Virus record (IMG/VR): IMGVR_UViG_3300043436_000818
Coordinates: 1-61,996 of that record
Length of the DNA stretch: 61,996 nt
Source: a virus
Taxonomy: Duplodnaviria > Caudoviricetes
Reading direction: 5' to 3' (one strand)
A program made the position numbers and the translations under genes. How positions within the stretch are numbered: position 1 is the stretch's first letter; each line of letters opens with the position of its first letter. Shown here one piece after another: positions 1-61,996 of the stretch. Below the pieces are notes generated by a model that made no database searches, had not been told where the DNA came from, and saw only the letters and a list, made by a program, of their open reading frames with translations.

Positions 1-157
1 AATGAGCAACAATAAACAAAGTATGAAACTATACACTAAAGAAGACTTTTTAAAAGCCGCTGAATTTTGCGAAGTGTCAATGATAGATGCGAAATATATA
101 ATTGAACGCATTGATGAAGTAAGCGACCCCATCGAACTACCAAGTGATGAGGAGATA
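1..157 (+). repeat. 157-bp exact repeat (copy at 31636-31792; first 127 bp also at 61870-61996)
   Basis: Direct comparison from aatgagcaacaataaacaaag to gatgaggagata. Confidence 0.95.
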
Positions 158-283
158 CGAGAAGAGCGATTATTACAATTTCCTGATTCTGAATATGCTA
201 ACAGGGCAAATGATAGACTTGCCTTTTATTGTGGCGCAAAATTCGTAATAAACAAATTCGGAAGTGATAATGAAATGGAGTAA
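2..283 (+). CDS. Hypothetical mosaic mini-protein
   Basis: N-half matches the 31637 ORF, C-half matches the 57604 ORF. Confidence 0.7.
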   Translation: MSNNKQSMKLYTKEDFLKAAEFCEVSMIDAKYIIERIDEVSDPIELPSDEEIREERLLQFPDSEYANRANDRLAFYCGAKFVINKFGSDNEME

Positions 284-647
284 GCAAGATTTGGAAAAAT
301 TCATGCAACTATATCCAGTAACCAATACTGAAGATTTAGTCAAGATATTCAATCGTAACGTTTCCGCATTACGAACTAAGGCACACGAATTAGGCATTCA
401 AAAGACAAATGAAACAATGGTTAATATGTGGTCACGGAGTAATAGCGGACAATTTAAACGAGGTCAAACCGCTTGGAACAAAGGCACAAAAGGACTAATG
501 GAATGTAACGCACCTACACGCTTCAAAAAAGGACAGATTCCACACAACAAGTTACCTGATAATATCCGAGCAATTACCAGTCAATTATCACGATTGAAGA
601 AAAACATAAAAGAAAGGGAGAAACGATATGCCACGCAACAAAATTGA
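264..647 (+). CDS. HNH-endonuclease-associated DNA-binding protein lacking the HNH core
   Basis: GQFKRGQTAWNKG and RFKKGQIPHN repeats; no HNH motif. Confidence 0.6.
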   Translation: MIMKWSKQDLEKFMQLYPVTNTEDLVKIFNRNVSALRTKAHELGIQKTNETMVNMWSRSNSGQFKRGQTAWNKGTKGLMECNAPTRFKKGQIPHNKLPDNIRAITSQLSRLKKNIKEREKRYATQQN

Positions 648-837
648 TGACTTACGCAACCATCTATTTGAAACGATTGAAATGCTCAAGGACAAAGAGA
701 TTGATGTCAACACCGCTAAGGCTATAAGCGAAGTAGCACAAGTCATTGTCAACACGGCAAAGGTTGAGATTCAATTCATCAATCGCCAAAATAGTAGCGA
801 AGAAATAGGATTTATGAAGTTGGAAAATAAGAAATAA
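628..837 (+). CDS. Conserved phage hypothetical protein
   Basis: NKIDDLRNHLFETIEML...AKAISEVAQVIVNTAKVE. Confidence 0.7.
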   Translation: MPRNKIDDLRNHLFETIEMLKDKEIDVNTAKAISEVAQVIVNTAKVEIQFINRQNSSEEIGFMKLENKK

Positions 838-850
838 ATACCTATATTTG
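819..850 (+). promoter_or_regulatory. Bacteroidota-type primary sigma promoter
   Basis: GTTG-N20-TATATTTG (843-850). Confidence 0.65.
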
Positions 851-854
851 AAGA

Positions 855-954
855 GTTAACTGAGATGTCGCATATCTCGAAAGTTACAAGATTTTTGCCC
901 GATTGGGTTAGTCTGCGATGCGACCGCAACTAATTCAGTTGGGCGTTTTTTTTT
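855..954 (+). ncRNA. Structured leader RNA with two hairpins, complementary 7-nt loops and a U-tract
   Basis: Loops GTCGCAT (867-873) and ATGCGAC (918-924); covarying counterpart at 59614-59711. Confidence 0.8.
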
Positions 955-955
955 A

Positions 956-1495
956 ATGAAAGAATCAATAATAATCTATCGCAGTTTTTATGAAGCGATT
1001 AAAGACTTGCCAAAAGAACAACAAGCAGACGCTTGGAATGCAATCTTTGAGTATGGTTTAAACCAAACCGAAGTACAATTAACTGGTATTGTTTCCACAG
1101 TATTTAAGTTAGTCAAACCTCAATTAGATGCCAATCTTAAACGCTATGAAAATGGCAATAAAGGAGGTAGACCAAAGAACCAAACAGAAACCAAACAAGA
1201 ACCTAACTATAACCAAACAATAACCAAAGTCGAACCTAATGTAAATGTTAATGTAAATGATAATGAAAAGGTTAATGTAAATAAGAAGTTTATTAAACCC
1301 ACACAAGACCAAATTAGAGAGTATATGTTAGAACAAAGAATGAACGATGAATCCGAACGCTTTTACAACTACTATGAGGCAGTAGGATGGAAAGTAGGAC
1401 GTAACCCAATGAAGAATTGGAAAGCAGCGGTAATTACTTGGAAGAAGAACCAACAACCTATACAAACCATTAACAACAATTATAGAGTATTATGA
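956..1495 (+). CDS. Replication initiator (DUF6291-like N-terminus)
   Basis: SIIIYRSFYEAIKDL N-terminus, FYNYYEAVGW..MKNWKAA C-terminus, internal iterons, next to helicase. Confidence 0.8.
   Translation: MKESIIIYRSFYEAIKDLPKEQQADAWNAIFEYGLNQTEVQLTGIVSTVFKLVKPQLDANLKRYENGNKGGRPKNQTETKQEPNYNQTITKVEPNVNVNVNDNEKVNVNKKFIKPTQDQIREYMLEQRMNDESERFYNYYEAVGWKVGRNPMKNWKAAVITWKKNQQPIQTINNNYRVL
1178..1282 (+). repeat. Putative replication origin A: six 11-bp iterons followed by AT-rich 6-mers
   Basis: AACC(A/T)AA at 1178, 1189, 1200, 1211, 1222, 1233, then (AATGTA)n-like tract. Confidence 0.75.
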
Positions 1496-2721
1496 ATTTA
1501 GAACTACACATCGTTAGCAACATAATGTTCTACGAAAAGAACTATGTTTATCTACCCCGAATTAAGGGTAATTGGTTTACTAACCCACTACACCAACAAA
1601 TAATCCAAGCAATGCAATTTTTGTACTTGCAGAACCAACCATTCGGTTTATACGAGATTGTTAACCACATCGGACAAGAGAAAGCCTACGAGGTATCAAT
1701 GATTCTAAATTCTGTTATGGGTACGGGAGAAATTGAACCACATATTAAACAACTCCAAGCGGTATCACTTAAACGTCAATTAGTAGATAAGTTAGGAGGA
1801 TTAGACTTAACACGCGATTTAAAGGCTATTACAAGCGATTTAACGCAATATGTCGAAGAAGCGATGATAGTACACGCAAAAGAATCAATTGCGATGAATA
1901 AGGTAACTGCAAAGACGTTTGACGATATGGTGTCAGCAATCGAGAGAGGTGATTCAATTAATGGTAGACCAACGGGATGGATTCGGTTAGATAGGGTTAT
2001 AGGTGGTTGGAATAAGGGAGACGTTGTTATTATAGCGGGGAGACCAGGTTCGGGGAAGACTTCCATAGCGTTAACCTTTATTCTAAACGCTGCTAAACTT
2101 GGTTCAAAGTGTTTGTTTCTATCATTGGAAATGAGCAACGAGCAAATTGCCAAGCGTTATATGAGTTTGATTTCTTCGGTTACAAACGGAAAGATACGTT
2201 CGGGTAATCTTGACAAACGAGACATTGAAACATTAGCGGTTGCTATTGTAAACGATGACAATGTATTCCACATAGACGATGAGGCGATAGTTGATATTAA
2301 CACAATTAAATCTAAGGTTAAGATTCACAAAGCGAAGTTCGGATTGGATGTATTGGTTATCGACTATTTACAATTGATTAAGGGGAACAAGCAAAACAGA
2401 GAGCAAGAGATATCCGACATAAGCCGCAACCTAAAAGTGTTAGCCAAAGAATTAGATATCACCGTTATTGCATTGGCTCAGTTATCGAGGAAGTGCGAGG
2501 AACGCTCAGACAAACGTCCTATGCTATCCGACATTAGAGAGAGTGGAAGTATAGAACAAGATGCAGACGTTATCTTATTTCCATTCCGTCAAAACTACTA
2601 CGATAGGCAATTACTCGATATTGAGGATAGTGAATTGATAGTTGCAAAGAACAGACACGGAGAGGTAGGAATGATTGAGACTGAATTTATACCATCACGA
2701 ACATATTACAGAGAAAAATAA
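1492..2721 (+). CDS. dnaB: Replicative DNA helicase (DnaB family)
   Basis: AGRPGSGKT, SLEM, IDYLQL, LAQLSR, SDIRESGSIEQDAD, KNRHG. Confidence 0.97.
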   Translation: MNLELHIVSNIMFYEKNYVYLPRIKGNWFTNPLHQQIIQAMQFLYLQNQPFGLYEIVNHIGQEKAYEVSMILNSVMGTGEIEPHIKQLQAVSLKRQLVDKLGGLDLTRDLKAITSDLTQYVEEAMIVHAKESIAMNKVTAKTFDDMVSAIERGDSINGRPTGWIRLDRVIGGWNKGDVVIIAGRPGSGKTSIALTFILNAAKLGSKCLFLSLEMSNEQIAKRYMSLISSVTNGKIRSGNLDKRDIETLAVAIVNDDNVFHIDDEAIVDINTIKSKVKIHKAKFGLDVLVIDYLQLIKGNKQNREQEISDISRNLKVLAKELDITVIALAQLSRKCEERSDKRPMLSDIRESGSIEQDADVILFPFRQNYYDRQLLDIEDSELIVAKNRHGEVGMIETEFIPSRTYYREK

Positions 2722-2778: not shown

Positions 2779-3030
2779 ATGGAAACAATGAAAAAAACAA
2801 TAGAAAGAACAAATGACACAAATGTATCAATGGCTAACGGATATATTGCACATAACAACATAGTCCATAAAATTCGTATTGTTAGATATAACATTAATGG
2901 TCAAGATATGGTAAGCATGATACCTGTATGTGGAACATCATATAAACGTGGTCAAGAGAGACTAATAAAAAATGAATCACATATTAATTGTGAAAAGTGT
3001 TTAAAAAGATTATCTAAACAGGGTGCTTAA
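2779..3030 (+). CDS. Hypothetical protein (CxxC near C-terminus)
   Basis: ORF between a promoter and a hairpin. Confidence 0.65.
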   Translation: METMKKTIERTNDTNVSMANGYIAHNNIVHKIRIVRYNINGQDMVSMIPVCGTSYKRGQERLIKNESHINCEKCLKRLSKQGA

Positions 3031-3043
3031 TTGCACCCTTTTA
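3016..3043 (+). terminator. Intrinsic terminator-like hairpin
   Basis: GGGTGC-TTAATT-GCACCC-TTTT; identical 26 bp at 57109-57134. Confidence 0.7.
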
Positions 3044-3055
3044 AATATTATAGTA

Positions 3056-7489: not shown

Positions 7490-8490
7490 ACCTACTACTA
7501 TTATGCGATGGAATGAACGGAGTAATCTATCATCGTATCGCAACACCTCACCTCCGTATGCAATTAATGGGATTGGCAAATGTAGACGTTTGCCAAAACC
7601 CTGCGGAGTTCTTAGACATCGATTACAAAGCATACGATTTAATTATATTCTCTCGGTGGTTAGGTGAGAAACACTATGATGTACTCAAGAAGATAGCACA
7701 GAGTGGCACGAAGTACGCGGTGGATGTGGACGATTATTGGGCTTTACCTCGTTACAATCCTGCATACCAAGCGTATCGGAAAGGAATCAAACAAGCCGTA
7801 AAGGATTCAATGCACTATGCAGACGCAGTAATTGCCACAACTCCACACCTACAATCCAAAGTATTCGAGTTTAACCGCAATTGTTACATAGTACCCAATT
7901 GCTTAGACTACGAACACGAACAATGGTCACAAGAGAAATGGAAGTCATATAACCTACGCATCGGATGGGTTGGAGGTGTAACACACTACGAGGATTTAAA
8001 GTTGTGTAACGAGGCTATAAATAGGCTACAATCGCATTATGACTTTGAGTTCTATATATGCGGTTATACCCCGAGCGAAGAATGGGACAAAATTGTCAAG
8101 TTATTCAACAACCCTAAGATAGTAGGCGGTGTGAACACCTTTGAATACGGACACGCTTATAAACACTTGGACTTTGTTATAGCACCCCTACTCAATGAAT
8201 CGTTCAACAACCACAAATCAGAGTTGAAGATATTAGAAGCGAGTGCATACCAATTGCCCATAGTGGTTAGTGATTGTTACCCTTACAAGTACTGCGAAAA
8301 CAACTTGGGTGTATTGTTTGCTGCAAACGACAAATGGGAAGATAGAATAGAAAAAATGATTCTAATGAGTGACGATGCAAGAATCGGAATGGGTCAACTA
8401 AACGGAGAGTATTCTCGTAAGCATTATAACTTAGAACATTGGTGTAGAGAGAGAGAGTTAATCTACAAGAAGATTATAAATGGAAATTGA
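7486..8490 (+). CDS. GT-B (GT4-like) glycosyltransferase
   Basis: DVDDYW, IGWVGG..H..DL, IAPL...FN..KSELKILE. Confidence 0.85.
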   Translation: MNLLLLCDGMNGVIYHRIATPHLRMQLMGLANVDVCQNPAEFLDIDYKAYDLIIFSRWLGEKHYDVLKKIAQSGTKYAVDVDDYWALPRYNPAYQAYRKGIKQAVKDSMHYADAVIATTPHLQSKVFEFNRNCYIVPNCLDYEHEQWSQEKWKSYNLRIGWVGGVTHYEDLKLCNEAINRLQSHYDFEFYICGYTPSEEWDKIVKLFNNPKIVGGVNTFEYGHAYKHLDFVIAPLLNESFNNHKSELKILEASAYQLPIVVSDCYPYKYCENNLGVLFAANDKWEDRIEKMILMSDDARIGMGQLNGEYSRKHYNLEHWCRERELIYKKIINGN

Positions 8491-9667
8491 GTACATCAGA
8501 CCATATTTAACAACATACCAACGGGAGATATTAGATGCTCCCGAACGCTATACTATTACCGCAGCATCAACCAAGACGGGTAAAACTGCATCCCATATTA
8601 TTTGGCTATTTGAACAAGCACTCACCCTCAAGACAAATCAATCTGTTTGGTGGGTTGCTCCCGTTTACAAACAAGCCGAGATTGCCTACCGAAGAATGAA
8701 AGCCCAAGTATCACACCGCGATTTCTTCCAATCCAACGAATCCAAGTTAGTACACATATTACCCAATGGAGCGAGGATAGAATTTAAGTCAGCAGAAAAC
8801 CCCGACAACCTATATGGAGAGGATGTATATGCAGCGGTATTCGATGAAGCCTCACGAGCGAGAGAAGAGAGTTGGTTTGCGTTACGTTCAACCCTAACCG
8901 CTACACGAGGCAAGTGTAAACTAATTGGAAACGTCAAGGGGAAAAAGAATTGGTTTTACAAATTAGGTGAACGAGCGAAACAAGGAGAACGAGATTATAA
9001 GTTCTTTAAAATAACTGCATACGATGCAGCGAGAGAGGGGATATTGTCATTGGACGAAATAGAACAAGCAAAACGTGATTTACCAAAGGCGGTATTCGAT
9101 GAATTGTACTTGGCTGAACCTGCTGACGATAAATCTAACCCATTCGGATTGGACAACATTGAAAAGTGCATCAGACCCGTTCAGAATAGTCAAGTAGTAG
9201 CGTATGGAGTTGACCTTGCAAAGTACACGGATTGGACGGTTATAATTGGTTTAAACGCTAATAACGAGGTAGCCTATGTAGATAGATTCCAAAATGATTG
9301 GGCAGCAACTACCGATAAGATAGTTTCTATCGTTGGAAACATCCCTGCGGTTATGGATAGTACAGGCGTAGGAGACCCTATCGTTGAGCAGATTCAGCGT
9401 AGATGCCCAAGAGTTAAGGGGTTTAAATTTACCTCAATAAGTAAGCAACAGATAATGGAGAACCTCGTAGCCCATTGTCATCAACAAAAGATATTCTTTC
9501 CATTAGACCCTATCGGGTATGAGATGCAGAATATAGAGTTTGAATACACCCAATCGGGTATAAGATACGCAGCACCATCAGGATTGCATGATGACTGCGT
9601 TATGAGTTTGGCATTAGCCTTAGAATGTAAACATACAAATCGACAAGGAACATTTTATTTTGCATAA
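8480..9667 (+). CDS. terL: Terminase large subunit (Terminase_6-like)
   Basis: ASTKTGKT Walker A variant, WWVAPVY, AVFDEA, GVDLA..D, HDDCVMSLALA. Confidence 0.93.
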   Translation: MEIEYIRPYLTTYQREILDAPERYTITAASTKTGKTASHIIWLFEQALTLKTNQSVWWVAPVYKQAEIAYRRMKAQVSHRDFFQSNESKLVHILPNGARIEFKSAENPDNLYGEDVYAAVFDEASRAREESWFALRSTLTATRGKCKLIGNVKGKKNWFYKLGERAKQGERDYKFFKITAYDAAREGILSLDEIEQAKRDLPKAVFDELYLAEPADDKSNPFGLDNIEKCIRPVQNSQVVAYGVDLAKYTDWTVIIGLNANNEVAYVDRFQNDWAATTDKIVSIVGNIPAVMDSTGVGDPIVEQIQRRCPRVKGFKFTSISKQQIMENLVAHCHQQKIFFPLDPIGYEMQNIEFEYTQSGIRYAAPSGLHDDCVMSLALALECKHTNRQGTFYFA

Positions 9668-16047: not shown

Positions 16048-17037
16048 ATGAAATTACCAGTTTATAAATTAGACATCAACGAATTTGATGAAGATAGCGG
16101 AATAGATTTTATCTCTTTGGTCGAAGCACCTGCAATCCAAAAGGACTTTGTAGCATTTAACCAAGCCTTTGTTGAACCCAAGCCAAACGAATCGGAGGAA
16201 GAATTTATATCTCGTTGCATACCCATATTAATAGGAGAGGGTAAAGAACAAGCCCAAGCGGTTGCAATATGCTATTCATATTTAGAGAAAAAGTTTGAAT
16301 CATATACGGACTATCCCGAAGCCGCTAAAGAGAACGCTAAACGTGGTATTCGATTGAACGAGGAATTAGGCAATAAATGTGCAACGCAAGTGGGTAAAGT
16401 AAGAGCGCAACAATTAGCCAATAGTGAGCCTATATCAGACGAAACTGTGAAGCGTGTATATTCCTACCTATCACGAGCAAAAGAGTATTACAAACCATCG
16501 GATGATACCGCTTGTGGTACAATCTCCTATCTACTATGGGGTGGTGAAGAAATGTTGAGATGGGCTGAATCTAAATTGAACTTTAATAAATTCTCAATCA
16601 CCAATGAAGAAAAGCGAATAGTTAGTGGTGTGGCAATGGTTGCAGATTTACCAATTTATCGGAGGGATTCTGTTCGCGGTGAGTATTATGTAATGTTCGA
16701 CAAAGAGGCTATTTTCAAACTTGCGAAGAAATGGGCAAGAAATGGTAAGTATTCAAGCGTTAACCAACACCACGAAAGCGAGGTTAAAGGTGTTCACTTA
16801 TTGGAATCCTACCTAATAGACAGAGAACGCGGTGTTAACCCTCCTATGGGCTTTGAAAAGATAGCCGATGGTTCTTGGTTTGTGTCCTACTTAGTAGACA
16901 ATGACGAAGTTTGGGCAAAAGTAAAGGACGGAGAATTTAAGGGATTTTCAGTTGAGGGTATGTTTGACTTCGTAGACGAGGAAACCGAACTTTACAACAA
17001 ATTAAAACGTGTTGTTAGTCAATGGAATGGGCAATAA
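16048..17037 (+). CDS. Prohead protease (XkdF-like serine protease) with inserted domains
   Basis: ISLVEAPAI, VNQHH, GSWFV, FKGFSVEG. Confidence 0.85.
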   Translation: MKLPVYKLDINEFDEDSGIDFISLVEAPAIQKDFVAFNQAFVEPKPNESEEEFISRCIPILIGEGKEQAQAVAICYSYLEKKFESYTDYPEAAKENAKRGIRLNEELGNKCATQVGKVRAQQLANSEPISDETVKRVYSYLSRAKEYYKPSDDTACGTISYLLWGGEEMLRWAESKLNFNKFSITNEEKRIVSGVAMVADLPIYRRDSVRGEYYVMFDKEAIFKLAKKWARNGKYSSVNQHHESEVKGVHLLESYLIDRERGVNPPMGFEKIADGSWFVSYLVDNDEVWAKVKDGEFKGFSVEGMFDFVDEETELYNKLKRVVSQWNGQ

Positions 17038-22458: not shown

Positions 22459-22471
22459 ACCCTATTTATAA

Positions 22472-38509: not shown

Positions 38510-38515
38510 AATAAT

Positions 38516-46104: not shown

Positions 46105-46716
46105 ATGAAGATAGTTGAATTAATATTGGATGAACAACAATTGGCTACGGGCATTGAGGCAATTAGTATTGTTGAATCACCCGCCATTGAATCCAATTTC
46201 ATTGCGTTAAATTCACACAAGTTGGAGTTTAAAACAATGGATTCCGAAAAGCGTGTGTTGTTAGGTCCTGCATTAATTCCAAACAAGCCAATTTATCGCC
46301 ATCAAGAATTAAATGGCAAAGAGGAGGAATTCTACGTTTATTTTTCCAAGGCAACCATAGAAAAGGCATCCCAATTGTACATGATGCGTGGCAACCAAGC
46401 CAAGACAACCATTGAACACCAATTTGGAGTGGATGGGGCAATCGTGGTTGAAACGTGGTTAAAGGTGGATGAGGTGAATGATAAATCCGTTGCGTATGGG
46501 TTCAACGATCCCGTAGGTACGTGGTATGTTGCAATGAAGATTGTGAACGATGAGATTTGGAACGATTTTGTAAAAACTGGTAAGGTTAAAGGGTTTAGTA
46601 TCGAAGGATTCTTTGCCGATAAATCTATGCCCACAGAAATGAGCAAGATAGAAACCGAACAAGATAAATTGGATAAAATAGTAAACATTTTAAAAGAATA
46701 TATAAATGGAAAATAA
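46105..46716 (+). CDS. Prohead protease (XkdF-like)
   Basis: ISIVESPAIE, TIEH, GTWYV, VKGFSIEG. Confidence 0.88.
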   Translation: MKIVELILDEQQLATGIEAISIVESPAIESNFIALNSHKLEFKTMDSEKRVLLGPALIPNKPIYRHQELNGKEEEFYVYFSKATIEKASQLYMMRGNQAKTTIEHQFGVDGAIVVETWLKVDEVNDKSVAYGFNDPVGTWYVAMKIVNDEIWNDFVKTGKVKGFSIEGFFADKSMPTEMSKIETEQDKLDKIVNILKEYINGK

Positions 46717-47749: not shown

Positions 47750-48673
47750 ATGAGAAATAAATTTGCATTTAGCGGCCCAACTATTAACCCGAACACCTAT
47801 GCAGGTTTGTTCGCAAATAAGTACATTGCGGCTGCCCTTTTGTCGGGTGATACCCTTGCAAAAGAATTGATTACCGTTCACCCCAATGTTGCTTACAAAG
47901 AGGTGATTCGTAACTACCAAAATTCCATCGTTATTGCCGATGCAACTTGTGATTTCACAGATTCATCAAGCGTAACTTTGGGCGAATACGTGTTGACTAC
48001 CGTAGAAAAGCAAGTGAACTTACAATTGTGTAAGAACCAATTGCGTACTACATGGGAGGCAGCACAAGCAGGATTTTCCGCATTTGAGAAATTGCCCGCT
48101 ACTTTCGAAGAGTTCGCATTAGCACAAACTGCCGCTGAGGTTGCACAAGCCGTTGAATTAGGTATTTGGAAAACTACTTTGTTCTACAATGGTACTGCCG
48201 ATGAAGGTATGGTTGGTTATTTGTTGGATAATTCAGCAATTACCGTAACTGCCACTGGTGTAACTACTGGTTCAAACGTAGTTGCTCGTTTACAAGCAAT
48301 GTTGGATGCATCTCCATCCGCTTTGTATGGTAAAGAGGGATATCAGTTCTATGTAGGCCCTACAACAATGAAAGCTTACCAAGCCGCATTGTCAGCAGGT
48401 AACTACAATTTCCAATTCTATGTTGGTGAGAAACCAATGAATTTCCAAGGTATTCCTGTTACTATGTGCCCAGGCCTTAACGATTCCGATTGCGTATTGG
48501 GATTAAAATCAGACCTACACTTTGGTACAGGTTTATTGAGTGATTATAACGAAGTGAAATTTATCGACATGAGCGATATTGATGGTTCACAGAACGTGCG
48601 TATCATCATGCGTTTCACAGGTGGTTTGATTGCTACTAACCCAACTCAACAAGTTGTATTAAATATTTCTTAA
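47750..48673 (+). CDS. Major capsid protein
   Basis: 307 aa, distant homolog of 17616 (VELGIW, FGTGL, VR..MRF). Confidence 0.85.
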   Translation: MRNKFAFSGPTINPNTYAGLFANKYIAAALLSGDTLAKELITVHPNVAYKEVIRNYQNSIVIADATCDFTDSSSVTLGEYVLTTVEKQVNLQLCKNQLRTTWEAAQAGFSAFEKLPATFEEFALAQTAAEVAQAVELGIWKTTLFYNGTADEGMVGYLLDNSAITVTATGVTTGSNVVARLQAMLDASPSALYGKEGYQFYVGPTTMKAYQAALSAGNYNFQFYVGEKPMNFQGIPVTMCPGLNDSDCVLGLKSDLHFGTGLLSDYNEVKFIDMSDIDGSQNVRIIMRFTGGLIATNPTQQVVLNIS

Positions 48674-49424: not shown

Positions 49425-49865
49425 ATGGTTATAAATCTATCCACGGCCAATATTTCATTCTATCCCTTTGTTTCGTTTGAGAATGTAACACAAGGGGGTG
49501 CAACATCGTATTTATTGCAACAGGATGGATTTTATATCTTACAACAAAATGGTAGTAAGATTATTACAAGTGAGGGTGGTGGAGTTGTAAACGTTCAGGT
49601 ATGGCATAAGAATACCAAAACTATGGTTGAGGCTAATGCAACACCTGTTGAAACAGGCACTAAAATTAGTGTAGCATTACCATCGTTAACCGATATTGCA
49701 GATGTTGCACAGGATTTAGATGTGTGCTTAATTCGTGTATTTAATGGTGATACCCTATTATGGGAATACCTTGCCACATGGTCGAATGAATCTACCAACA
49801 TCAATAAGACATTTAAAAATTGGGATACCACATCAAACATTAGTCCACAATGGATAACACTATAA
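49425..49865 (+). CDS. Virion structural protein
   Basis: Same position as 19144; carries LLQQDGFYILQQNGSKI. Confidence 0.6.
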   Translation: MVINLSTANISFYPFVSFENVTQGGATSYLLQQDGFYILQQNGSKIITSEGGGVVNVQVWHKNTKTMVEANATPVETGTKISVALPSLTDIADVAQDLDVCLIRVFNGDTLLWEYLATWSNESTNINKTFKNWDTTSNISPQWITL

Positions 49866-52117
49866 AACAGAATTTTTCGTTTATGCAATTTGCATCCTAC
49901 ACCGCACCTGCGATTGTAGAGCATAAGAATAAACATTGGGTTGAATACGGAGAGGATAACGATTATTATCAGTATTTAATTGATTTGTATCTTGGTTCAC
50001 CAACCAACAATGCCGCAATTAAAGGTATTGCAGATTTGGTGTATGGATTAGGTTTGGAGGTTGTAAAATCCGATAGGAACTTAAAAGGTTACATAGAGTT
50101 TAAAAAGCTTATTAAGCCTGATTGCATCCGTGCCGTTACATTGGATTTGAAGATGTTGGGGCAATATGCTTTTCATTGTGTTAAATCCAAGGACAAGAAA
50201 TCCTATGTTAAGGTATCTCATTGGCCTATTCAAACCCTACGCCCTGAACGATGCAACGATAAAGGTGAAATTGAGGGATGGTATTTCTGTGCCGATTGGA
50301 GTAAATTAAAAAGAGGTCAGCAACCTAAACGATTTGCATCATTTGGATTTGATGAGAATGAGAATGAATGTATATTGGTGGTTAAACCATATTCAACAGG
50401 ATCGTACTACTTTGCACCCGTAGATTATCAGGGTGGTACACAATGGGCAGATTTAGAATGTGAAATTAGCAACTACCATATTAACAACATCAAAAATGGT
50501 TTAGCACCATCGATGTTAATTAACTTTAATAATGGTCAACCACCCGAAGAGGTTAGAAATGCAATAGAGGGGCAAATTAACGCCAAATGGAGTGGTTCTT
50601 CCAATGCAGGTAGAGCAATTATATCATTTAACGATTCCAAGGAAACGGCAACCGAAATAACACCAGTACAATTATCCGATGCTCATAATCAGTACGAATT
50701 CTTATCAAGGGAATCCACCCAAAAGATAATGTTAGCCCACCGCATTGTATCACCAATGTTGTTGGGGATTAAAGACAATACAGGATTAGGGAATAATGCC
50801 GATGAGTTGCGTAGTGCATCTATACTATTCGATAACATCGTTATAAGACCATTTCAACGATTAATTATTGAGGGTGTAGAGAAAGTATTAAACGCCAATG
50901 GAATATCGTTGGAAATGTACTTTAAAACGTTGCAACCTTTGGAATTTACCGACCTATCGGGCAAGGAAGTTACCGAGGAAGTTAAGGAACAAGAAATGGG
51001 ATTTAGTTCCCAAAAAAAAAAGTATGATTTTGTAAAACCCAATGCAGGGGAATCGGAAGATGATTTTATTTCCCGATGTATTGGCGTGGTAGTTGGCGAG
51101 GGTAAAGAACAAGACCAAGCGGCTGCAATATGTTACAATTATTGGGAGGGTTCTGTTCAATTGGCAGAATCATACACCGACTATCCCGAAAGTGCCTCTA
51201 ACAACGCTAAAAAGGCATTAGAATGGGCAGAGAAAAACGGATGGGGTGATTGTGGTACACCAGTAGGCAAACAACGTGCAAACCAACTTGCAAAGCGTGA
51301 ACCAATATCTCGTGAAACTATTGCACGAATGGCGGCATTCCGTAGACACCAACAAAACAAAGATGTACCATATTCCGAGGGGTGTGGTGGATTGATGTGG
51401 GATGCATGGGGTGGTGAATCAGGTATTCAATGGGCTGAAAATAAATTAAAACAGATTGACGCTAAATTGAGTGTTGATAGACCTGAATTTACACAAGAAG
51501 CCGAACAAGAATGGATTGAATACCTAAAAGACAAAGGTCAAGTGATTGATGAATCGGTTTGGGAGTTAATTGATGAATATCCTGTGGATGATCCCGACAA
51601 CGAACAACACCTATCACGCCACGAATTTTTTAAACGATTTGCCAACCCTGATGAGAAATCCAAGGATGACAAGGGTATTTATTTGATTCGTTATCGATAC
51701 GCACCATTCCGTGTTCAAGAGAATAGCCGCATATTTTGTAAAGATATGGTTGCCAATGCCAAGCTTGGTGTAACCTATCGCAGGGAAGATATTGATGTAA
51801 TGGGTGATGCTGGTATTAATGGACAATTTGCACCATCAGGAAAATCAAGTTACTCAATTTGGAAATATAAGGGTGGGGTTTATTGTAAGCACCAATGGTT
51901 CAGATTGACATACCGCAGAAAAAAGATTAATGGTAAAATCATACCATTGACATCGGAAGAAAAAGAACAGAACATGAGGGATATAGTGGACAATTATGAC
52001 CGAGTATCTTCACAGAGTGCAGATAGAGCAGGTGTACCATTTGACCCACCATCTTGGGATATAGCATCCGTAAAAACAAACGATTTACCTAATAGAGGCT
52101 CATTAAAAAACAAATAA
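49850..52117 (+). CDS. Portal protein with inserted domains
   Basis: YGEDNDYYQYL...SPTNNA, IMLAHRIVSPMLLG; SRIFCK...CKHQW. Confidence 0.88.
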   Translation: MDNTIKQNFSFMQFASYTAPAIVEHKNKHWVEYGEDNDYYQYLIDLYLGSPTNNAAIKGIADLVYGLGLEVVKSDRNLKGYIEFKKLIKPDCIRAVTLDLKMLGQYAFHCVKSKDKKSYVKVSHWPIQTLRPERCNDKGEIEGWYFCADWSKLKRGQQPKRFASFGFDENENECILVVKPYSTGSYYFAPVDYQGGTQWADLECEISNYHINNIKNGLAPSMLINFNNGQPPEEVRNAIEGQINAKWSGSSNAGRAIISFNDSKETATEITPVQLSDAHNQYEFLSRESTQKIMLAHRIVSPMLLGIKDNTGLGNNADELRSASILFDNIVIRPFQRLIIEGVEKVLNANGISLEMYFKTLQPLEFTDLSGKEVTEEVKEQEMGFSSQKKKYDFVKPNAGESEDDFISRCIGVVVGEGKEQDQAAAICYNYWEGSVQLAESYTDYPESASNNAKKALEWAEKNGWGDCGTPVGKQRANQLAKREPISRETIARMAAFRRHQQNKDVPYSEGCGGLMWDAWGGESGIQWAENKLKQIDAKLSVDRPEFTQEAEQEWIEYLKDKGQVIDESVWELIDEYPVDDPDNEQHLSRHEFFKRFANPDEKSKDDKGIYLIRYRYAPFRVQENSRIFCKDMVANAKLGVTYRREDIDVMGDAGINGQFAPSGKSSYSIWKYKGGVYCKHQWFRLTYRRKKINGKIIPLTSEEKEQNMRDIVDNYDRVSSQSADRAGVPFDPPSWDIASVKTNDLPNRGSLKNK

Positions 52118-53336: not shown

Positions 53337-54623
53337 ATGCCCGATCAGAAAATAACGCAACTAACTGCGATAACCACAATTGATAATTCCGACCCACTAC
53401 CCATAGTGGATTTAACGGATGATACTACCAAAAAAATTACCATTGCACAATTAAAGGCACAAGCTCCCGTACAATCGGTAGCAGGTAAAACGGGTGCAGT
53501 TACATTGGCGGCATCGGATATTGGTGCAGGTACTGTGGACAATACCGAATATGGGTATTTAAATGGCGTTACCTCCGCAATCCAAAACCAATTAAATGCA
53601 AAACAAGGTGCATTGACATTAACAACAACGGGTTCAAGTGGTGCAGCTACGTTGGTAGGTGATACATTGAACATCCCACAATATAGTGGAGGTGGTTCAA
53701 TTCCTGATGGAGATAAGGGAGATATAACCGTAAGCAATAGCGGTGCAACTTGGACAATTGATAATGGAGTTGTAAGCGATGCAAAAATAGCCACGGGCAT
53801 TGATGCCGCTAAGATTGGTGCAGGTACGGTGAGTAATACTGAATTTGGTTATTTGGATGGGGTAACGAGTGCGATTCAAACGCAATTAGATTCTAAGGTA
53901 GACGAAAACGCAGCGATTACAGGAGCAACAAAAACTAAAATAACTTACGATTCTAAGGGTTTAGTAACCGCAGGAGCAGACGCAACCACTGCGGATATTG
54001 CCGATAGTTCAAATAAGCGATATGTAACCGATGCTCAATTAGTAGTTATTGGAAATACAAGCGGAACGAATACGGGTGATAATGCAGTAAATAGTTTATA
54101 TAGCGGATTGGCTACGAGCAAACAGGACACACTTGTAAGCGGTACCAATATTAAGACAATTAACTCTACATCATTGTTAGGGACGGGTAATATATCCGTA
54201 GCCCCTGCGAGTGGAATTGATGCAACTGCAATTGGTTCGGGTTCTGTATCAAATACGGAGTTCGGGTATCTCGATGGCGTTACGAGTGCAATCCAAACGC
54301 AAATCGACACCAAAACAAATAAACTAATTACCGCTAACAGACAGACTGCATCCTACACATTGGTTGCATCTGATGCGGATAAGTTGGTGGAAATGAATGT
54401 AGCAAGTGCTAATAACTTGACCGTACCTGCATCGGTATTTACAGCAGGGACACAGATTTTATTGGCACAATACGGAGCAGGACAGACCACAATCGTTGCA
54501 GGTTCAGGGATGACAATAAGAAGCAATGGCGGTAAATTAAAATTATCGGCTCAATATAGTGGAGCTACGTTGGTTTTCATATCGGCTACGGAAGCGTATT
54601 TATTTGGGGATATTGCGTCATGA
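53337..54623 (+). CDS. Tail fibre-like protein with three internal repeats
   Basis: IG.G.V.NTE(Y/F)GYL(N/D)GVTSAIQ.Q three times. Confidence 0.78.
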   Translation: MPDQKITQLTAITTIDNSDPLPIVDLTDDTTKKITIAQLKAQAPVQSVAGKTGAVTLAASDIGAGTVDNTEYGYLNGVTSAIQNQLNAKQGALTLTTTGSSGAATLVGDTLNIPQYSGGGSIPDGDKGDITVSNSGATWTIDNGVVSDAKIATGIDAAKIGAGTVSNTEFGYLDGVTSAIQTQLDSKVDENAAITGATKTKITYDSKGLVTAGADATTADIADSSNKRYVTDAQLVVIGNTSGTNTGDNAVNSLYSGLATSKQDTLVSGTNIKTINSTSLLGTGNISVAPASGIDATAIGSGSVSNTEFGYLDGVTSAIQTQIDTKTNKLITANRQTASYTLVASDADKLVEMNVASANNLTVPASVFTAGTQILLAQYGAGQTTIVAGSGMTIRSNGGKLKLSAQYSGATLVFISATEAYLFGDIAS

Positions 54624-55456: not shown

Positions 55457-55694
55457 CGGATATTACTACCCTACCGAACAAGAAGCAATCGCAGCACGTG
55501 AAGCATGTGACACTTACTATGGAATACCCGTTTCCCCTGATGATGTTACCCAAAATTGGGTTGATTATCAGTTTGCAGAATTGAACGAGCCGCAGTTTTG
55601 GTACATAGTTTTTGACGAATCATTAATTCCAATATTAGGGCAGCCCACAGAATTTGAAGTAATACAACCACCATTTCCTTATGAAACACATTGA
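55443..55694 (+). CDS. Small acidic fibre-associated protein
   Basis: Coupled ORF. Confidence 0.6.
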   Translation: MPFINGYYYPTEQEAIAAREACDTYYGIPVSPDDVTQNWVDYQFAELNEPQFWYIVFDESLIPILGQPTEFEVIQPPFPYETH

Positions 55695-55872
55695 TAACGA
55701 CACCACGGCAACGATAGCAACCGCAGTTAGTGGGAGTGCTACAATTATACATTTCTCCCAAACTTGGCAGCCTGTAGCCGCATTCGTGTTGGCTATTGTA
55801 GGCATAGTTTCGGGATTGTTTGCGATAATATATTGGCATAAGAAAATTAAGCATTTAGATGGCAAAGGTTAA
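55681..55872 (+). CDS. Holin-like membrane protein
   Basis: Near-identical to 21985. Confidence 0.6.
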   Translation: MKHIDNDTTATIATAVSGSATIIHFSQTWQPVAAFVLAIVGIVSGLFAIIYWHKKIKHLDGKG

Positions 55873-55978
55873 GGCATCAGTAACACTATTTCGTAAGAAG
55901 CCAAAGAGGAAACTCGGACGGCATACCAAACACATTAATAAACATAAATCGTGGAAACCAAACAGAGGTCAAGGGTGA
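55859..55978 (+). CDS. 39-aa basic peptide (not in ORF track)
   Basis: Homolog of 22163. Confidence 0.7.
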   Translation: MAKVKASVTLFRKKPKRKLGRHTKHINKHKSWKPNRGQG

Positions 55979-56169
55979 AATTCAAACCCTATTTTTCGCC
56001 AACACCTAAAAGAATACGCATATTTGGCGATTCATTAGCCGCTGCATCTATAATGGTTGCAGGGTTTAATATGGATCATCCATCCGTAATGATAGGTTGT
56101 GCAGTCGTTGGTGGATTAGGTAAATTCCTATCCAATTTCTTTACCATAGAACAAGAGAATGAAAACTAA
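55975..56169 (+). CDS. Holin-like membrane protein
   Basis: Near-identical to 22279; abuts amidase. Confidence 0.7.
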   Translation: MKFKPYFSPTPKRIRIFGDSLAAASIMVAGFNMDHPSVMIGCAVVGGLGKFLSNFFTIEQENEN

Positions 56170-56788
56170 ACAAATTACTTTCCGTGGGTATTACCACGAA
56201 GCCAAGAATAAATCACAGGTATATTTACACCATACCGCAGGTAATGACAATGCACAATCGGTATTTAATTGGTGGGAATCACAAGGCAAAAAAATTGCTA
56301 CCTGTGTTGTGATAAATTCCAAGGGTGAAATTATACAGGGGTTTGGTTCACAATACTGGGGATATCACCTTGGTTTAACCAATGATGTATTCCGCAAAAA
56401 TGGTTGTACATTCATCCCATTGGATAAATCATCCATAGGTATTGAGATTTGTTGTTGGGGGCAGTTAACAAAAAAGGGTGATAAATTCTATAATTACGTT
56501 AACAAGGAAGTTCCAGCCGATGAGGTTTGCACATTGGATAAACCATTTAAAGGATATAAGTATTTCCATAACTACACCGATGCACAGATTGAAGCCGTAG
56601 AGGCATTATTAAAGCATTGGGGGCAAAAATACGGCATAGACCTTACCTACCATCAGGATGTATGGGATGTTACGCCACGAGCCTTAAAAAACGTTAATGG
56701 AGTATATACCCATAATTCGGTACGTTACGATAAAATTGATGTATATCCGCACCCAAAATTGGTGGATATGCTGAAAAATCTTAAATAA
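56159..56788 (+). CDS. N-acetylmuramoyl-L-alanine amidase endolysin
   Basis: LHHTAG, SIGIEI, YTDAQ, THNSVR.DK.D..P. Confidence 0.9.
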   Translation: MKTKQITFRGYYHEAKNKSQVYLHHTAGNDNAQSVFNWWESQGKKIATCVVINSKGEIIQGFGSQYWGYHLGLTNDVFRKNGCTFIPLDKSSIGIEICCWGQLTKKGDKFYNYVNKEVPADEVCTLDKPFKGYKYFHNYTDAQIEAVEALLKHWGQKYGIDLTYHQDVWDVTPRALKNVNGVYTHNSVRYDKIDVYPHPKLVDMLKNLK

Positions 56789-57108: not shown

Positions 57109-57134
57109 AAACAGGGTGCTTAATTGCACCCTTT
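57109..57134 (+). terminator. Terminator-like hairpin
   Basis: Identical to 3016-3041. Confidence 0.7.
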
Positions 57135-57147
57135 AAATTAAACGAAT

Positions 57148-57375
57148 ATGGAAACAACAATAAAAGTATTATGCACGGCACAGGAAGCCTTTGCATTAAT
57201 TGATTTACTACCAAAAGAATCATTCATTCAATTGGTACAGAACGATCCTACCTACGGGTTGAATGGTTCAGGGGATTTCTATGTGGTGTGCATAGACAAT
57301 TCAAACTATTATTTTTCGCATTCCCGATTATTCAATTTGGGTATGCAGGTTCAAAAAAAGATTGCTAATAAGTAA
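57148..57375 (+). CDS. Hypothetical protein
   Basis: ORF. Confidence 0.6.
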   Translation: METTIKVLCTAQEAFALIDLLPKESFIQLVQNDPTYGLNGSGDFYVVCIDNSNYYFSHSRLFNLGMQVQKKIANK

Positions 57376-57385
57376 AATATTGATT

Positions 57386-57607
57386 ATGTTGCCAATAGAA
57401 TTTTTAATACTATATCCTATGAGCCTCCCAGTTGCTTTTTTATTGAGCAAGTTATGGGCGAAGATTAGCCGCAAGAGATATGTAGATACGCCCGAAGCTA
57501 CACCCTACGAGTTTGAAAAAGACAAGCCCGTAAAGAATTACAACCAAGTGATGAACCACATCCATTGTGAAACCAAAAGAATGTATAGGGGAAAACTATT
57601 ATCATGA
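57386..57607 (+). CDS. Small membrane-anchored protein
   Basis: Homolog of 30588. Confidence 0.7.
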   Translation: MLPIEFLILYPMSLPVAFLLSKLWAKISRKRYVDTPEATPYEFEKDKPVKNYNQVMNHIHCETKRMYRGKLLS

Positions 57608-57855
57608 AACTATACACAGAGGATCAAGTTGTAAATGCTTTACAAAAAGTATTTTTAGAATCAATAACATTTGAAGATGTTAACGAGGTTGTTAGAAATT
57701 TAACACCCATTGAACTACCAAGTGAGGAGGAGATACGAGAAGAGAGATTATTACAATTTCCTGATTCTGAATATGCTAACAGGGCAAATGATAGACTTGC
57801 CTTTTATTGTGGCGCAAAATTCGTAATAAACAAAATACAAGGAGGTAACAAATGA
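57604..57855 (+). CDS. PIELPS-family mini-protein
   Basis: C-half matches 2-283; GGNK end. Confidence 0.7.
   Translation: MKLYTEDQVVNALQKVFLESITFEDVNEVVRNLTPIELPSEEEIREERLLQFPDSEYANRANDRLAFYCGAKFVINKIQGGNK
57706..57834 (+). repeat. 129-bp repeat shared with 128-256
   Basis: Three mismatches seen; encodes PIELPS...CGAKFVINK. Confidence 0.9.
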
Positions 57856-58040
57856 TACGTTACGAGAAAAAAGATTCCCTACAATGGAAAATGGAATGGT
57901 TGGAGAATATCAGGGAGTATGTCTATGTAATAACCGATGGTGGATATTCTGAAAAGTATATGATATACGATTGGAGTTTACACGATGCGATTAAAGATTT
58001 TAAAACTAAATTAAAAGTAAAATATGCAGTTAAGTATTGA
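57852..58040 (+). CDS. Hypothetical protein
   Basis: GGAGG-ATGA coupled. Confidence 0.6.
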   Translation: MIRYEKKDSLQWKMEWLENIREYVYVITDGGYSEKYMIYDWSLHDAIKDFKTKLKVKYAVKY

Positions 58041-58224
58041 TAGGGCAATGGGATTGCCAAAGGGAACATCCATCATTTATACGCACTTGGATACAAACGA
58101 TAGCGAGGAAATGAAATGGGTGGGAATGGACTTTTCACCTACTGGATTAATTCGTGGAATTGTAGAGGATGAAGATGGTAACCATTGGTGGGGTTATCTT
58201 ACACAATTTCATACATTTGATTGA
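58024..58224 (+). CDS. Hypothetical protein
   Basis: Coupled ORF. Confidence 0.55.
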   Translation: MQLSIDRAMGLPKGTSIIYTHLDTNDSEEMKWVGMDFSPTGLIRGIVEDEDGNHWWGYLTQFHTFD

Positions 58225-59613: not shown

Positions 59614-59711
59614 GTTAACTGGAATGTGAGAGATTCCGAAAGTTAAAAGACTATTGCCCGTTGGGTTTGCGTGTACTCTCACTACCGCAGATTCGATGGG
59701 CTTTTTTATTT
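59614..59711 (+). ncRNA. Structured leader RNA (counterpart of 855-954)
   Basis: Loops GTGAGAG (59626-59632) and CTCTCAC (59676-59682). Confidence 0.8.
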
Positions 59712-60458
59712 ATGGAAGAAACAAACTATTTTGTAATATTTCCAACCGAGTTACTGGAAGTATTAACGCCCCGACAAGCAATATTAATCGGGATCATCAC
59801 AGGTATGGCAAAAAAACAAGGTTACGCATACCCAAGCAACCAAACATTATCAAACCTATTGAACGTGAGTATTGATTGTATTAAACGTGATTTAGCGGAA
59901 TTGGAGGAAAAGAAACACATTTATCGTGAAATCATTAGGAACGATAAACAAGAAGTAATACAACGCAGAATTTACCCTACGCATTTAAAACGCACCGAGG
60001 TGGGTGCAGAAATACCCCGAGGGGTGGGTGCAAATTTACACGGAGGGTCGGTGCAAAAATCCGCCATAGATAATAATAATAGTTATAATAATAAATTAGA
60101 TAAAGATAATTATATAACTATCGCAGGGCGATTGTATGATAGGGATGAACTTTTTGAACTATGTTGGAAAGCATATCCAAGAAAAGAGGGAAAGGCCGCA
60201 GCACGGAAAACGTGGGGGAAATTGAAAGTGGAGGATATCCAGTTAATACAAAAGCATCTACCATTATTTAAAAAAGAAAGTTCCGCAAAAGAAAAAAGAT
60301 ACATCCCACATTTTTCAACCTACCTAAACCAACGCAGATTTGAGGATGAGTTAGAACCATCCAATATGGGCGGCATCCTAATGGATAAAATAAACAAGCT
60401 TACTAATGAAATCGGTCATTCACTAAATAACACTTTACAAATCATTACAAATCAATAA
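59712..60458 (+). CDS. Replication initiator (N-terminal winged HTH)
   Basis: GYAYPSNQTLS...IKRDLAELE; WKAYPRKEGKAAA...HFSTYLNQRRF; internal iterons; start set at ATG 59712. Confidence 0.85.
   Translation: MEETNYFVIFPTELLEVLTPRQAILIGIITGMAKKQGYAYPSNQTLSNLLNVSIDCIKRDLAELEEKKHIYREIIRNDKQEVIQRRIYPTHLKRTEVGAEIPRGVGANLHGGSVQKSAIDNNNSYNNKLDKDNYITIAGRLYDRDELFELCWKAYPRKEGKAAARKTWGKLKVEDIQLIQKHLPLFKKESSAKEKRYIPHFSTYLNQRRFEDELEPSNMGGILMDKINKLTNEIGHSLNNTLQIITNQ
59999..60118 (+). repeat. Putative replication origin B: three 23-24-bp iterons plus an AT-rich tract
   Basis: GGT(G/C)GGTGCA at 59999, 60023, 60046. Confidence 0.72.
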
Positions 60459-60468
60459 TATTTGAACC

Positions 60469-61140
60469 ATGTTTATAAAAGACATAACCCCCGAGATGCT
60501 CGATTTGCACATTACTAAATTTTGTGCATTAACTGGAATGGAGTACATCGACCTAACATCAATGATTTACCCAATGGTATTGGAGAAATATGGCAAGTAT
60601 GATGCGGCAATATTTCCGAATGCATTTAAGGATTTTGTAATATCAGGTCGCAAAGCCCCATCAAAGTTTGCATTTAACTTTATCTGTGGCGTTCTAAACG
60701 AATATATACAGGATAACCATACCAAGATACCACGGGTGGAAAATAAACGTGAATACACCCCAAAACTGCCATCCCCCGATGAAATGGAAAAGATATTCCA
60801 AAATAACTTTTCACGGTGTACTACAACTTGGATAAATGTATGGTATAGCCAAAAGATGGAAATGTTATCATTGATGGTAATGAACATTGTTTTTAAGGGA
60901 TTGGTAGAACGTGGATTGGTAGAGGATAATTTTGATCAAGGCGAAGTGTACCAAATGATGGATTGGGTATCTAATTATGAGCAAAAATACATCCAGCACC
61001 TGAAAGGATTGAATCGCAACCCATACGCCAAAACAATATATGAAACATTGACTTTGGTTGCCGATAAGAACAAACAGGATAAGACATTAGAGGGAGCGGC
61101 TAAATTTGCAATATACATAAACACAAAAAACAATATTTAA
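60469..61140 (+). CDS. Hypothetical protein (possible helicase loader by position)
   Basis: Follows initiator. Confidence 0.6.
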   Translation: MFIKDITPEMLDLHITKFCALTGMEYIDLTSMIYPMVLEKYGKYDAAIFPNAFKDFVISGRKAPSKFAFNFICGVLNEYIQDNHTKIPRVENKREYTPKLPSPDEMEKIFQNNFSRCTTTWINVWYSQKMEMLSLMVMNIVFKGLVERGLVEDNFDQGEVYQMMDWVSNYEQKYIQHLKGLNRNPYAKTIYETLTLVADKNKQDKTLEGAAKFAIYINTKNNI

Positions 61141-61145
61141 ACGAT

Positions 61146-61481
61146 ATGTTAAAAGTAGAAACAATCACATCAAGTTACTTTTCACCACGAGTGGTCGACA
61201 AGGTAAGAGACATTTTAACCCGATTCCCTGAAACACGGGATTCCAACAACCAATTATTGGCAAAGTATTTTCATTTCTATTGCCCCGAACCCGTGCAGTA
61301 CATTACAGGTGAGGAATTTTTAAACCATCTTGCCGCTGGTAACTTGGGTAAATTGGAGGTAATTACACGAGCATCACGAAAGTTACAACAGGATTACCCT
61401 GAATTGCGTGGGTATCTATGGGAAAAACGCCAACGGAAGGAAACGGAAGTTAGGGATGAAGTAAGAACATGGGAGGTATAA
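61146..61481 (+). CDS. Conserved phage hypothetical protein
   Basis: PETRDSN..L; ITRASRKLQQDYPELRG. Confidence 0.7.
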   Translation: MLKVETITSSYFSPRVVDKVRDILTRFPETRDSNNQLLAKYFHFYCPEPVQYITGEEFLNHLAAGNLGKLEVITRASRKLQQDYPELRGYLWEKRQRKETEVRDEVRTWEV

Positions 61482-61483
61482 CA

Positions 61484-61723
61484 ATGACTGCAATAAACAC
61501 ATTAATTGATTGGGTTCAAGAAATACAATCATGTAGCCCCGAATCATCTTGTTTCATCGATGCACAGGAAATTATTGATCACGCCAACCGATATGCAATG
61601 GATGATGAGATGCAGGTAATTAAATACCTTGGTATTTTAACCGACATCATAAATGCCCATCCTGATATTACACGGGAGGAAATATTGTATGAAATCAATC
61701 GAATTAAGGAGATTTTATTATGA
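61484..61723 (+). CDS. Hypothetical mini-array protein
   Basis: GGAGG upstream. Confidence 0.6.
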   Translation: MTAINTLIDWVQEIQSCSPESSCFIDAQEIIDHANRYAMDDEMQVIKYLGILTDIINAHPDITREEILYEINRIKEILL

Positions 61724-61884
61724 GAATTGTTGTTAAACACAAAAACACGGAAGTTGTCATCGAGGATGGCGAAACTAAAACCGACACTAATTCCAATCTA
61801 ATCTACTACAATCAAAAGTATTTATTAGAATTGTTGGACAAGATTTTTAAAGAGATTAAAGCATTGGACAATGAGCAACAATAA
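61720..61884 (+). CDS. 54-aa hypothetical protein
   Basis: Near-identical to 31038. Confidence 0.7.
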   Translation: MRIVVKHKNTEVVIEDGETKTDTNSNLIYYNQKYLLELLDKIFKEIKALDNEQQ

Positions 61885-61996
61885 ACAAAGTATGAAACTA
61901 TACACTAAAGAAGACTTTTTAAAAGCCGCTGAATTTTGCGAAGTGTCAATGATAGATGCGAAATATATAATTGAACGCATTGATGAAGTAAGCGAC
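61870..61996 (+). repeat. 127-bp terminal overlap (circular assembly signature)
   Basis: Identical to 1-127; 127 is a common maximum assembler k-mer. Confidence 0.95.

Follow-up and report, generated by a model that had tools for sequence, protein, structure and literature searches.

Does the virus record IMGVR_UViG_3300043436_000818 of IMG/VR represent one tailed phage genome of about 62 kilobases (kb), or two genomes that became joined? The whole record of 61,996 bases (61,869 unique ones when no overlap is counted) is the window of this study, and IMG/VR lists it as 100% complete, with direct terminal repeats. An initial annotation of this DNA had read it as a figure-of-eight assembly chimera of two phages fused through repeats, with a recombinant cointegrate of the two as a caveat. 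I conclude, with considerable confidence, that the record is an assembly chimera of two tailed phages, distantly related to each other, that shared one lake-water community; most likely there is no 62-kb genome, and the record is a database artefact rather than a new kind of phage. The figure-of-eight reading is supported by the uniqueness of a 157-base-pair (bp) repeat, R1, by records of 31-32 kb that hold only one half, by alternative joins in other contigs, and by the depth of the halves, which does not covary in three public sequencing runs (X3-X5) but is equal in the probable source run.

The repeats set the geometry of the problem. The record closes on a 127-bp terminal overlap, positions 1-127 being an exact copy of 61870-61996, and a third exact copy is found at 31636-31762. 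R1 itself, 1-157 and 31636-31792, is identical at 157 of 157 positions and longer than the overlap, as described in the initial annotation; its leftward flanks diverge from the first base, and it is the only exact repeat of at least 127 bp in the record. Eight exact repeats of at least 31 bases are present in the 61,869 unique bases, and besides R1 all are 50-90 bases long, the next longest measuring 90, 89 and 83 bp. The start-to-start spacing of R1 gives circles of 31,635 and 30,234 bp, which are the sizes given before and are here called genomes A and B (Table 1; open reading frames (ORFs) were counted with a simple plus-strand caller, and those of at least 40 amino acids (aa) were kept). 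A second 157-bp repeat, 31050-31206 against 61732-61888, lies where it was placed, but it is not exact: 156 of its 157 positions agree, with a mismatch at 31133 (G, against A at 61815). When extended, it forms a 170-bp patch (R2, 31037-31206 against 61719-61888) with five mismatches and 97% identity, within which no exact stretch exceeds 83 bp and the second longest has 73 bp.

Each half carries packaging and head genes of its own. The hallmarks do occur twice, with a large terminase (TerL), a portal, a prohead protease, a capsid-like and a fibre-like protein in both halves, and the copies are divergent as claimed, homologous structural proteins of A and B being 21-36% identical. The terminases belong to the families that had been named, Terminase_6N in A and the PBSX type in B, and both exceed the Pfam cut-off, while for the two portals the Pfam family Phage_portal stays below its cut-off and PHROG portal families give the match. 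The genes 17616-18545 and 47750-48673 probably encode the major capsid proteins, judged by their place in the gene order, by a PHROG family without known function and by a lead from the Atlas, where the neighbours of the A protein include a cluster named major capsid protein; a profile search of PDB sequences with the alignment of this protein gave no match at E up to 1, and its AlphaFold2 model, based on a 15-sequence alignment, was poor (predicted local distance difference test (pLDDT) 38.3, predicted template modelling score (pTM) 0.33). Over the two proteomes, 21 proteins of A have a homologue in B at E below 1e-3, and 61-96% identity is reached only by small genes within shared patches. 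Nucleotide alignment of A and B gives nothing beyond these patches and a few weak matches. With structural proteins at 21-36% identity and a like base composition (37.6 vs 37.8% guanine plus cytosine (GC), tetranucleotide r 0.89), the halves are two different phages that are distantly related and similarly built.

Taken at face value, the record would show one phage whose true genome measures 62 kb and has two diverged copies of every module, as its class of complete genome with direct terminal repeats suggests. The uniform composition and the location of all genes on one strand agree with this, and all long ORFs of the record are indeed on the plus strand. However, the two gene sets are complete and mostly non-interchangeable, with terminases of different Pfam families, and the relatives of the two halves in IMG/VR give no sign of such a genome. 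I scanned the best 80 of 439 loci related to TerL of A and the best 80 of 83 related to TerL of B, 160 loci in total. Among the best 80 for TerL of A, the longest contig measures 33,049 bp and 14 fall between 30.6 and 33.0 kb; among the best 80 for TerL of B, the longest contigs measure 31,770, 31,013, 30,163 and 29,528 bp. No contig near 62 kb was found among these 160 loci, none of which lies on a contig longer than 33,049 bp. Where a single 62-kb genome would have one packaging and head set and relatives of similar length, there are two sets and a longest relative of about half that size, and I regard this reading as extremely improbable.

Each half is instead matched by free-standing, near-complete records of 30.6-32.3 kb (CheckV 97-100%, two with terminal repeats), and each is found alone as a CheckV-complete record of 31-32 kb. 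Five such records were searched whole with four stretches jointly covering the window. Three are of the A type (G001, 30,624 bp, CheckV 97%; G002, 32,344 bp, CheckV 100%; G003, 31,743 bp, CheckV 100%, with terminal repeats) and match A lengthwise at 70-90% nucleotide identity, against patches of at most 724 bp for B, the longest at the genes of a further shared patch, R4. The two of the B type (G004, 31,013 bp, CheckV 98%; G005, 31,770 bp, CheckV 100%, with terminal repeats) match B at 89-97% over most of its length, against patches of at most 855 bp for A, the longest around R4. G004 is collinear with B over most of its length, and G005 is collinear with the entire B circle and passes directly from window position 61874 to 32118; in G003 778 bp separate the matches to A 30883 and A 1246. 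Where the circles close, neither lineage has space for the other genome. In a survey of how the ends of the halves connect to their starts (tblastn of the 110 ORFs of the window against the 160 loci, plus strand, at least half of the query, eight ambiguous cassette genes excluded), A-end led to A-start in 16 of 17 transitions at the TerL-A loci, and B-end to B-start in 8 of 13 at the TerL-B loci.

The joins themselves can be compared with independent contigs that carry R1. The 38-base core of R1 is present in four other IMG/VR contigs, and the R1 peptide occurs at 100% identity in four metagenome contigs (48 loci in all, mostly distant). Eight R1-bearing contigs (L166-L173) were compared with the window by BLAST and directly. 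L170 runs from A-end (31561-31635, 75/75) through R1 (157/157) into A-start (285/300) and on to window position 1260 at 98.7% identity, and its junction is exactly the one proposed for the A circle. In L167, which is closely related to A and shares many proteins with it at 100% identity, the order is A-end, R2, R1, A-start. L169, which is 95% identical to B, continues from B-end through R2 and R1 to 31793-31893 and then 32102 onward, and its junction is that of the proposed B circle. The other five (L166, L168, L171, L172 and L173) hold R1 in other contexts. The joins of the window, A-end-R1-B-start and B-end-R1-A-start, are present in none of the eight.

R1 is 100% identical in L167, L168, L169, L170 and L173 despite flanks that differ by 1-15% from the window, and in L168 and L173 different modules lie downstream of it. 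This suggests that R1 is a mobile gene segment which has spread recently or is strongly conserved.

The same contigs bear on the point at which a chimera would have to be cut. A break at R2 instead of R1 would give circles of about 31,187 and 30,682 bp and assign the two small genes within 31189-31640 to B. The 97% identity of the R2 copies would allow this, as would L167, in which R2 is followed by R1 and A-start without 31207-31635. However, L170 joins 31561-31635 to R1 and A-start at 75 of 75 positions, L169 leads from B's R2 directly into R1 and B-start, and G002, of the A type, has a homologue of gene 31189-31434. Moreover, R2 would not collapse in the final assembly graph because its exact stretches of 83 and 73 bp are shorter than the 127-bp word. 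I rejected the break at R2, which is very unlikely.

Depth in public sequencing runs offers a view of the two halves in their communities. The stretch 26636-36635 was represented by 0.98 and 0.97 of the sampled words in two possible source runs, and by 0.27-0.55 in another 22 runs, as expected where only one half is near-identical; the runs holding it are mostly labelled lake-water or freshwater metagenomes. Logan contigs of four runs (X1, X3, X4 and X5) were placed on window positions 21636-41635, and all depths given here are contig depths. In X4, A is present exactly (0 mismatches in 640, 1369, 506 and 523 bases) at 5.8-18.5x, next to gapped B-like pieces, about 2% diverged, at 44-49x. The corresponding depths are 4.9-9.8x for A pieces and 50-104x for B-like pieces in X3, and 3.7-6.3x and 22-27x in X5. 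As exact A sequence is found beside diverged B-like pieces at other depths, A occurs without this B strain and the A:B ratio varies, which also counts against a single genome. In X1, the probable source, both halves are exact, A at 31.3x on a 7,730-bp piece and at 35.8x on a 973-bp piece, B at 29.0-32.6x on six pieces. The comparison of coverage between the halves, which had been put forward as a check, therefore comes out both ways: the ratios of 1:3 to 1:10 in X3-X5 favour a chimera, whereas the ratio of about 1:1 in X1 does not. Long X1 pieces stop at 31079 and resume at 32008, and the short joints and loose ends at 31211-32121 come from other genomes with common cassette sequences.

With this equality in X1, the earlier caveat that the record may be a recombinant cointegrate stands. 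Circles or concatemers of A and B would in that case have been joined by homologous recombination at R1 in co-infected cells, giving a heterodimeric 62-kb replicative molecule, abundant enough to assemble, to which A's ERF protein and exonuclease may have contributed. Such an origin, which I hold to be unlikely, would agree with the equal depth in the probable source run (A 31.3x, B 29.0-32.6x), with the path that the assembler picked, with the presence in A of genes for an ERF protein (93.3 bits) and an exonuclease, with the co-occurrence of both phages in all four runs, and with the earlier exchange of DNA between A and B that is seen in four patches of 88-100% identity. On the other hand, relatives of both lineages end at 31-33 kb, the window joins occur in none of the eight R1-bearing contigs while three of these show alternative joins, and the depth of A to B-like pieces varies from 1:3 to 1:10 in the three other runs. 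Capsids for genomes of 31-33 kb could not package 62 kb. A cointegrate would exceed their capacity and could therefore only be a minority intracellular form. A true 62-kb heterodimer at full depth, fused at an R1 that is 100% conserved across samples and possibly formed via A's ERF protein and exonuclease, is for me a doubtful explanation of the record.

The preferred explanation, an assembly chimera, would work as follows. A and B would be separate phages within one community, and both would have acquired R1, which stands at the start of a small early gene in each, via past exchange. At a word size of 127, R1 would collapse into one common edge, entered by two paths and left by two, because at 157 bp it is longer than the word; equal depth of both loops would then make a balanced figure of eight, from which the assembler would output one closed walk of A, R1, B and R1 instead of two separate circles. 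As this walk is closed, the record would look circular, with a 127-bp 'terminal repeat'. I infer that neither the A-to-B join nor the B-to-A join has support in the reads from the source sample.

Several points weigh against this explanation. The depth of the halves in X1 is equal within noise, as one molecule would give, and two independent phages would not be expected a priori to reach equal depth by chance. The evidence comes from contigs and not from reads, and the Logan contigs break at short repeats; none of them bridges R1. The use of 127-base words by the assembler I infer from the 127-bp overlap alone, and an assembler with read pairs should normally resolve a 157-bp repeat, which leaves its choice of path unexplained. 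Finally, 6 of the 30 end-to-start transitions are mixed (L036, L096, L159, L142, L144 and L154); in each case one gene for replication or recombination is involved, 29-60% identical, and the contigs do not exceed 30,163 bp, so these are not genome fusions.

Both joins lie in an array of small overlapping genes (Table 1), and similar arrays are found at 1-283 and 57148-58224; the arrays are hyperplastic, with genes of 49-94 aa over all three places. The cassette proteins of the junction region mostly start with MSN(N)KQ or MSNETQ and mostly end in GG(N/D)K. At the cassette gene borders, the stop, the ribosome-binding site and the following start lie in one conserved sequence, and domains are shuffled between genes. 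A PHROG scan of 10 cassette proteins left 8 without any match and gave 2 weak ones (E = 0.009 and E = 0.00066), of which the one at E of at most 1e-3 is to an unnamed family. A 41-base stretch at 31315-31355 (also at 32007-32047), which encodes EQAKEMEKEQ, is the break point of many contigs in all four lake runs, with 5-12 loose ends ahead of it and 6-17 after it in each run, an agreement of the loose ends of about 50%, and a summed depth far above that of the flanks; it is a motif common to many genomes of these lake communities. Summed contig depth in the array is 5-13x that of the flanks in X1, and in the junction bins 30974-32307 it reaches 167-417 in X1 and 676-1107 in X3. Many lake genomes share this cassette region, and any path of an assembler through it is fragile for that reason.

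It is documented that assembly can wrongly combine two distinct viral genomes in one contig. In the part of Roux et al. 2017 (PMC5610896) that deals with simulated viromes such contigs amount to less than 5% of contigs of at least 10 kb, MEGAHIT producing fewer of them than metaSPAdes and IDBA-UD; the viralFlye report (PMC8862349), where it treats such cases, takes a contig that is collinear with two concatenated terminal-repeat references as potentially chimeric. As in the chimeras described in those sections, the present contig consists of two concatenated viral genomes joined at a highly similar region, although the viralFlye cases presented there result from chimeric long reads and a collapsed repeat would be responsible here. 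In contrast to those chimeras, the present one is a closed walk with a false terminal repeat and a rating of 100% complete, and the common region measures only 157 bp in genomes that are otherwise unalignable at the nucleotide level. Contigs that are concatemers of the same genome contain it twice, and completeness tools such as CheckV detect them through their repeated k-mers. The record resembles these in being a 'circular' contig of about twice the true length, but its halves differ, and a test of k-mer multiplicity would consequently not flag it, whereas its length compared with that of its relatives would.

Apart from R1 and R2, two further patches are common to A and B, R3 and R4 (Table 1), both absent from the initial annotation; all four are 88-100% identical in genomes that otherwise cannot be aligned. 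The N-terminal 52 aa encoded by gene 2-283 are as in B gene 31637-31900, and its C-terminal part is as in B gene 57604-57855. Because its R1 and R3 parts thus match two different B genes, gene 2-283 is a natural mosaic of two B-type modules, and its protein is 100% identical in L167. The copies of R4 are 88% identical at the nucleotide level, and the two proteins that they encode are 95% and 93% identical; their position in B indicates that these may be lysis genes such as holins. The sharing of patches points to a common host and to recent exchange between A and B. According to the modular or mosaic theory, co-infecting phages exchange DNA at short conserved gene boundaries. The patches, which are 88-100% identical and sharply delimited by the borders of genes or domains, and the ERF and exonuclease module of A are in line with this theory, which accounts for the common R1, but not alone for a double genome of 62 kb.

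Table 1. Coordinates of the repeats, proposed genomes and principal genes in the window (IMGVR_UViG_3300043436_000818).
Feature	Position	Strand	Remarks
Terminal overlap	61870-61996		Exact copy of 1-127; the 'direct terminal repeat' behind the circular/complete class
R1, copy 1	1-157	+	157-bp exact repeat; 5' part of small gene 2-283
R1, copy 2	31636-31792	+	A-to-B join site; 5' part of small gene 31637-31900
R2, copy in A	31037-31206	+	54-aa gene 31038-31202; last 19 nucleotides are the first 19 nucleotides of R1
R2, copy in B	61719-61888	+	54-aa gene 61720-61884; directly continuous with R1
R3, copy in A	128-256	+	3' part of gene 2-283; 98% identical to 57706-57834
R3, copy in B	57706-57834	+	Within B gene 57604-57855
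R4, copy in A	21967-22458	+	Small genes 21922-22176 and 22255-22458, just upstream of portal
R4, copy in B	55667-56154	+	Two small genes directly upstream of amidase
Genome A (proposed)	1-31635	+	About 31.6 kb; 58 ORFs; 37.6% GC; closure 31635 to 1
Genome B (proposed)	31636-61869	+	About 30.2 kb; 52 ORFs; 37.8% GC; closure 61869 to 31636
Array of small overlapping genes	30522-32247	+	54-94 aa; contains both joins
Large terminase of A	8480-9667	+	Terminase_6N, 37.5 bits (cut-off 22)
Large terminase of B	37332-38489	+	Terminase_3 plus Terminase_3C, PBSX type
Portal of A	22472-24352	+	phrog_33693, E = 1.7e-36; Pfam Phage_portal 27.7 bits, below the 39.1 cut-off
Portal of B	49850-52117	+	phrog_33693, E = 2.1e-100; extra C-terminal domain phrog_2859
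Prohead protease of A	16048-17037	+	Peptidase_S78_2, passes Pfam cut-off
Prohead protease of B	46105-46716	+	Peptidase_S78_2, passes Pfam cut-off
Probable major capsid protein of A	17616-18545	+	phrog_11320, about 308 aa
Probable major capsid protein of B	47750-48673	+	phrog_11320, about 308 aa, 24% identical to that of A
Fibre-like protein of A	19715-20521	+	
Fibre-like protein of B	53337-54623	+	
DnaB-like replicative helicase of A	1492-2721	+	Preceded by a 179-aa protein without a name
Recombination module of A	28880-30075	+	ERF-family annealing protein 28880-29428 (93.3 bits) and exonuclease 29446-30075
Replication initiation protein of B	59661-60458	+	PHROG match
Amidase_2 endolysin of B	56159-56788	+	

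The remaining genes differ between the halves in several respects. The initial annotation had listed different initiators and different endolysins among the distinctions. The former is borne out in part: a replication initiation protein is recognised in B, and A has the DnaB-like helicase behind the unnamed 179-aa protein; for the latter, the amidase of B was found, but no endolysin of A was detected among the 43 proteins of the window that were scanned with PHROGs or Pfam, and that claim is not confirmed. A also encodes a Mom-like protein and a metallophosphoesterase, and B a ParB-methyltransferase fusion and a sigma-like protein. The ERF and exonuclease module of A has no recognised counterpart in B; the contigs L142, L144 and L154, which are distant members of the B lineage, have an ERF-like gene, 33-34% identical, ahead of the B-start genes. 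No tRNA genes were found in the window. A terminator-like hairpin rich in G+C, followed by a run of T, is located at 3016-3047 in A and at 57109-57140 in B (94% identical over 32 bases), and is also present in G004 and G005.

Among the structural genes, the domain phrog_2859, about 100 aa long, has different partners in the two halves: the portal in B (residues about 441-555) and the N-terminus of the prohead protease in A, with 49% identity between the two over 141 aa. The domain shares 41-58% identity with parts of head-morphogenesis, portal or protease proteins of the haloarchaeal tailed viruses HGTV-1, HRTV-28, HRTV-4 and BLv36. In the fibre-like gene of B, an 83-base unit occurs three times at 53520-54313, in copies that are 69-73% identical and encode a repeated peptide motif.

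The closest cultured relatives found are the Nonlabens phages P12024S and P12024L (NC_018271 and NC_018272; 35.7 kb) of a marine flavobacterium, whose portal is 38% identical to that of B over 59% of its length; they are similar in genome size to one half of the record, and very distant. For TerL of A, the best cultured matches stay below 34% identity (at most 33%) and belong to assorted unrelated phages, while much closer uncultured relatives number in the hundreds in IMG/VR. Relatives of TerL of B are found on contigs binned into metagenome-assembled genomes of Bacteroidia (77%, on a 2.9-kb contig) and Flavobacteriales (47%, on a 41-kb contig), a weak hint at a Bacteroidota host for A and B.

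The record should be flagged and cut at R1, which would leave one circle of 31,635 bases and another of 30,234. As filed, it inflates estimates of genome length, and clustering and host assignment based on it would treat two lineages as one. It exemplifies a mode of failure that is missed by a check of k-mer multiplicity and caught by a comparison of length with that of relatives, or by a check for duplicated hallmark genes. If the joins were true after all, the record would offer a rare direct view of an intermediate of recombination between phages, and a possible route by which the DNA of one phage could be packaged by the terminase of the other.

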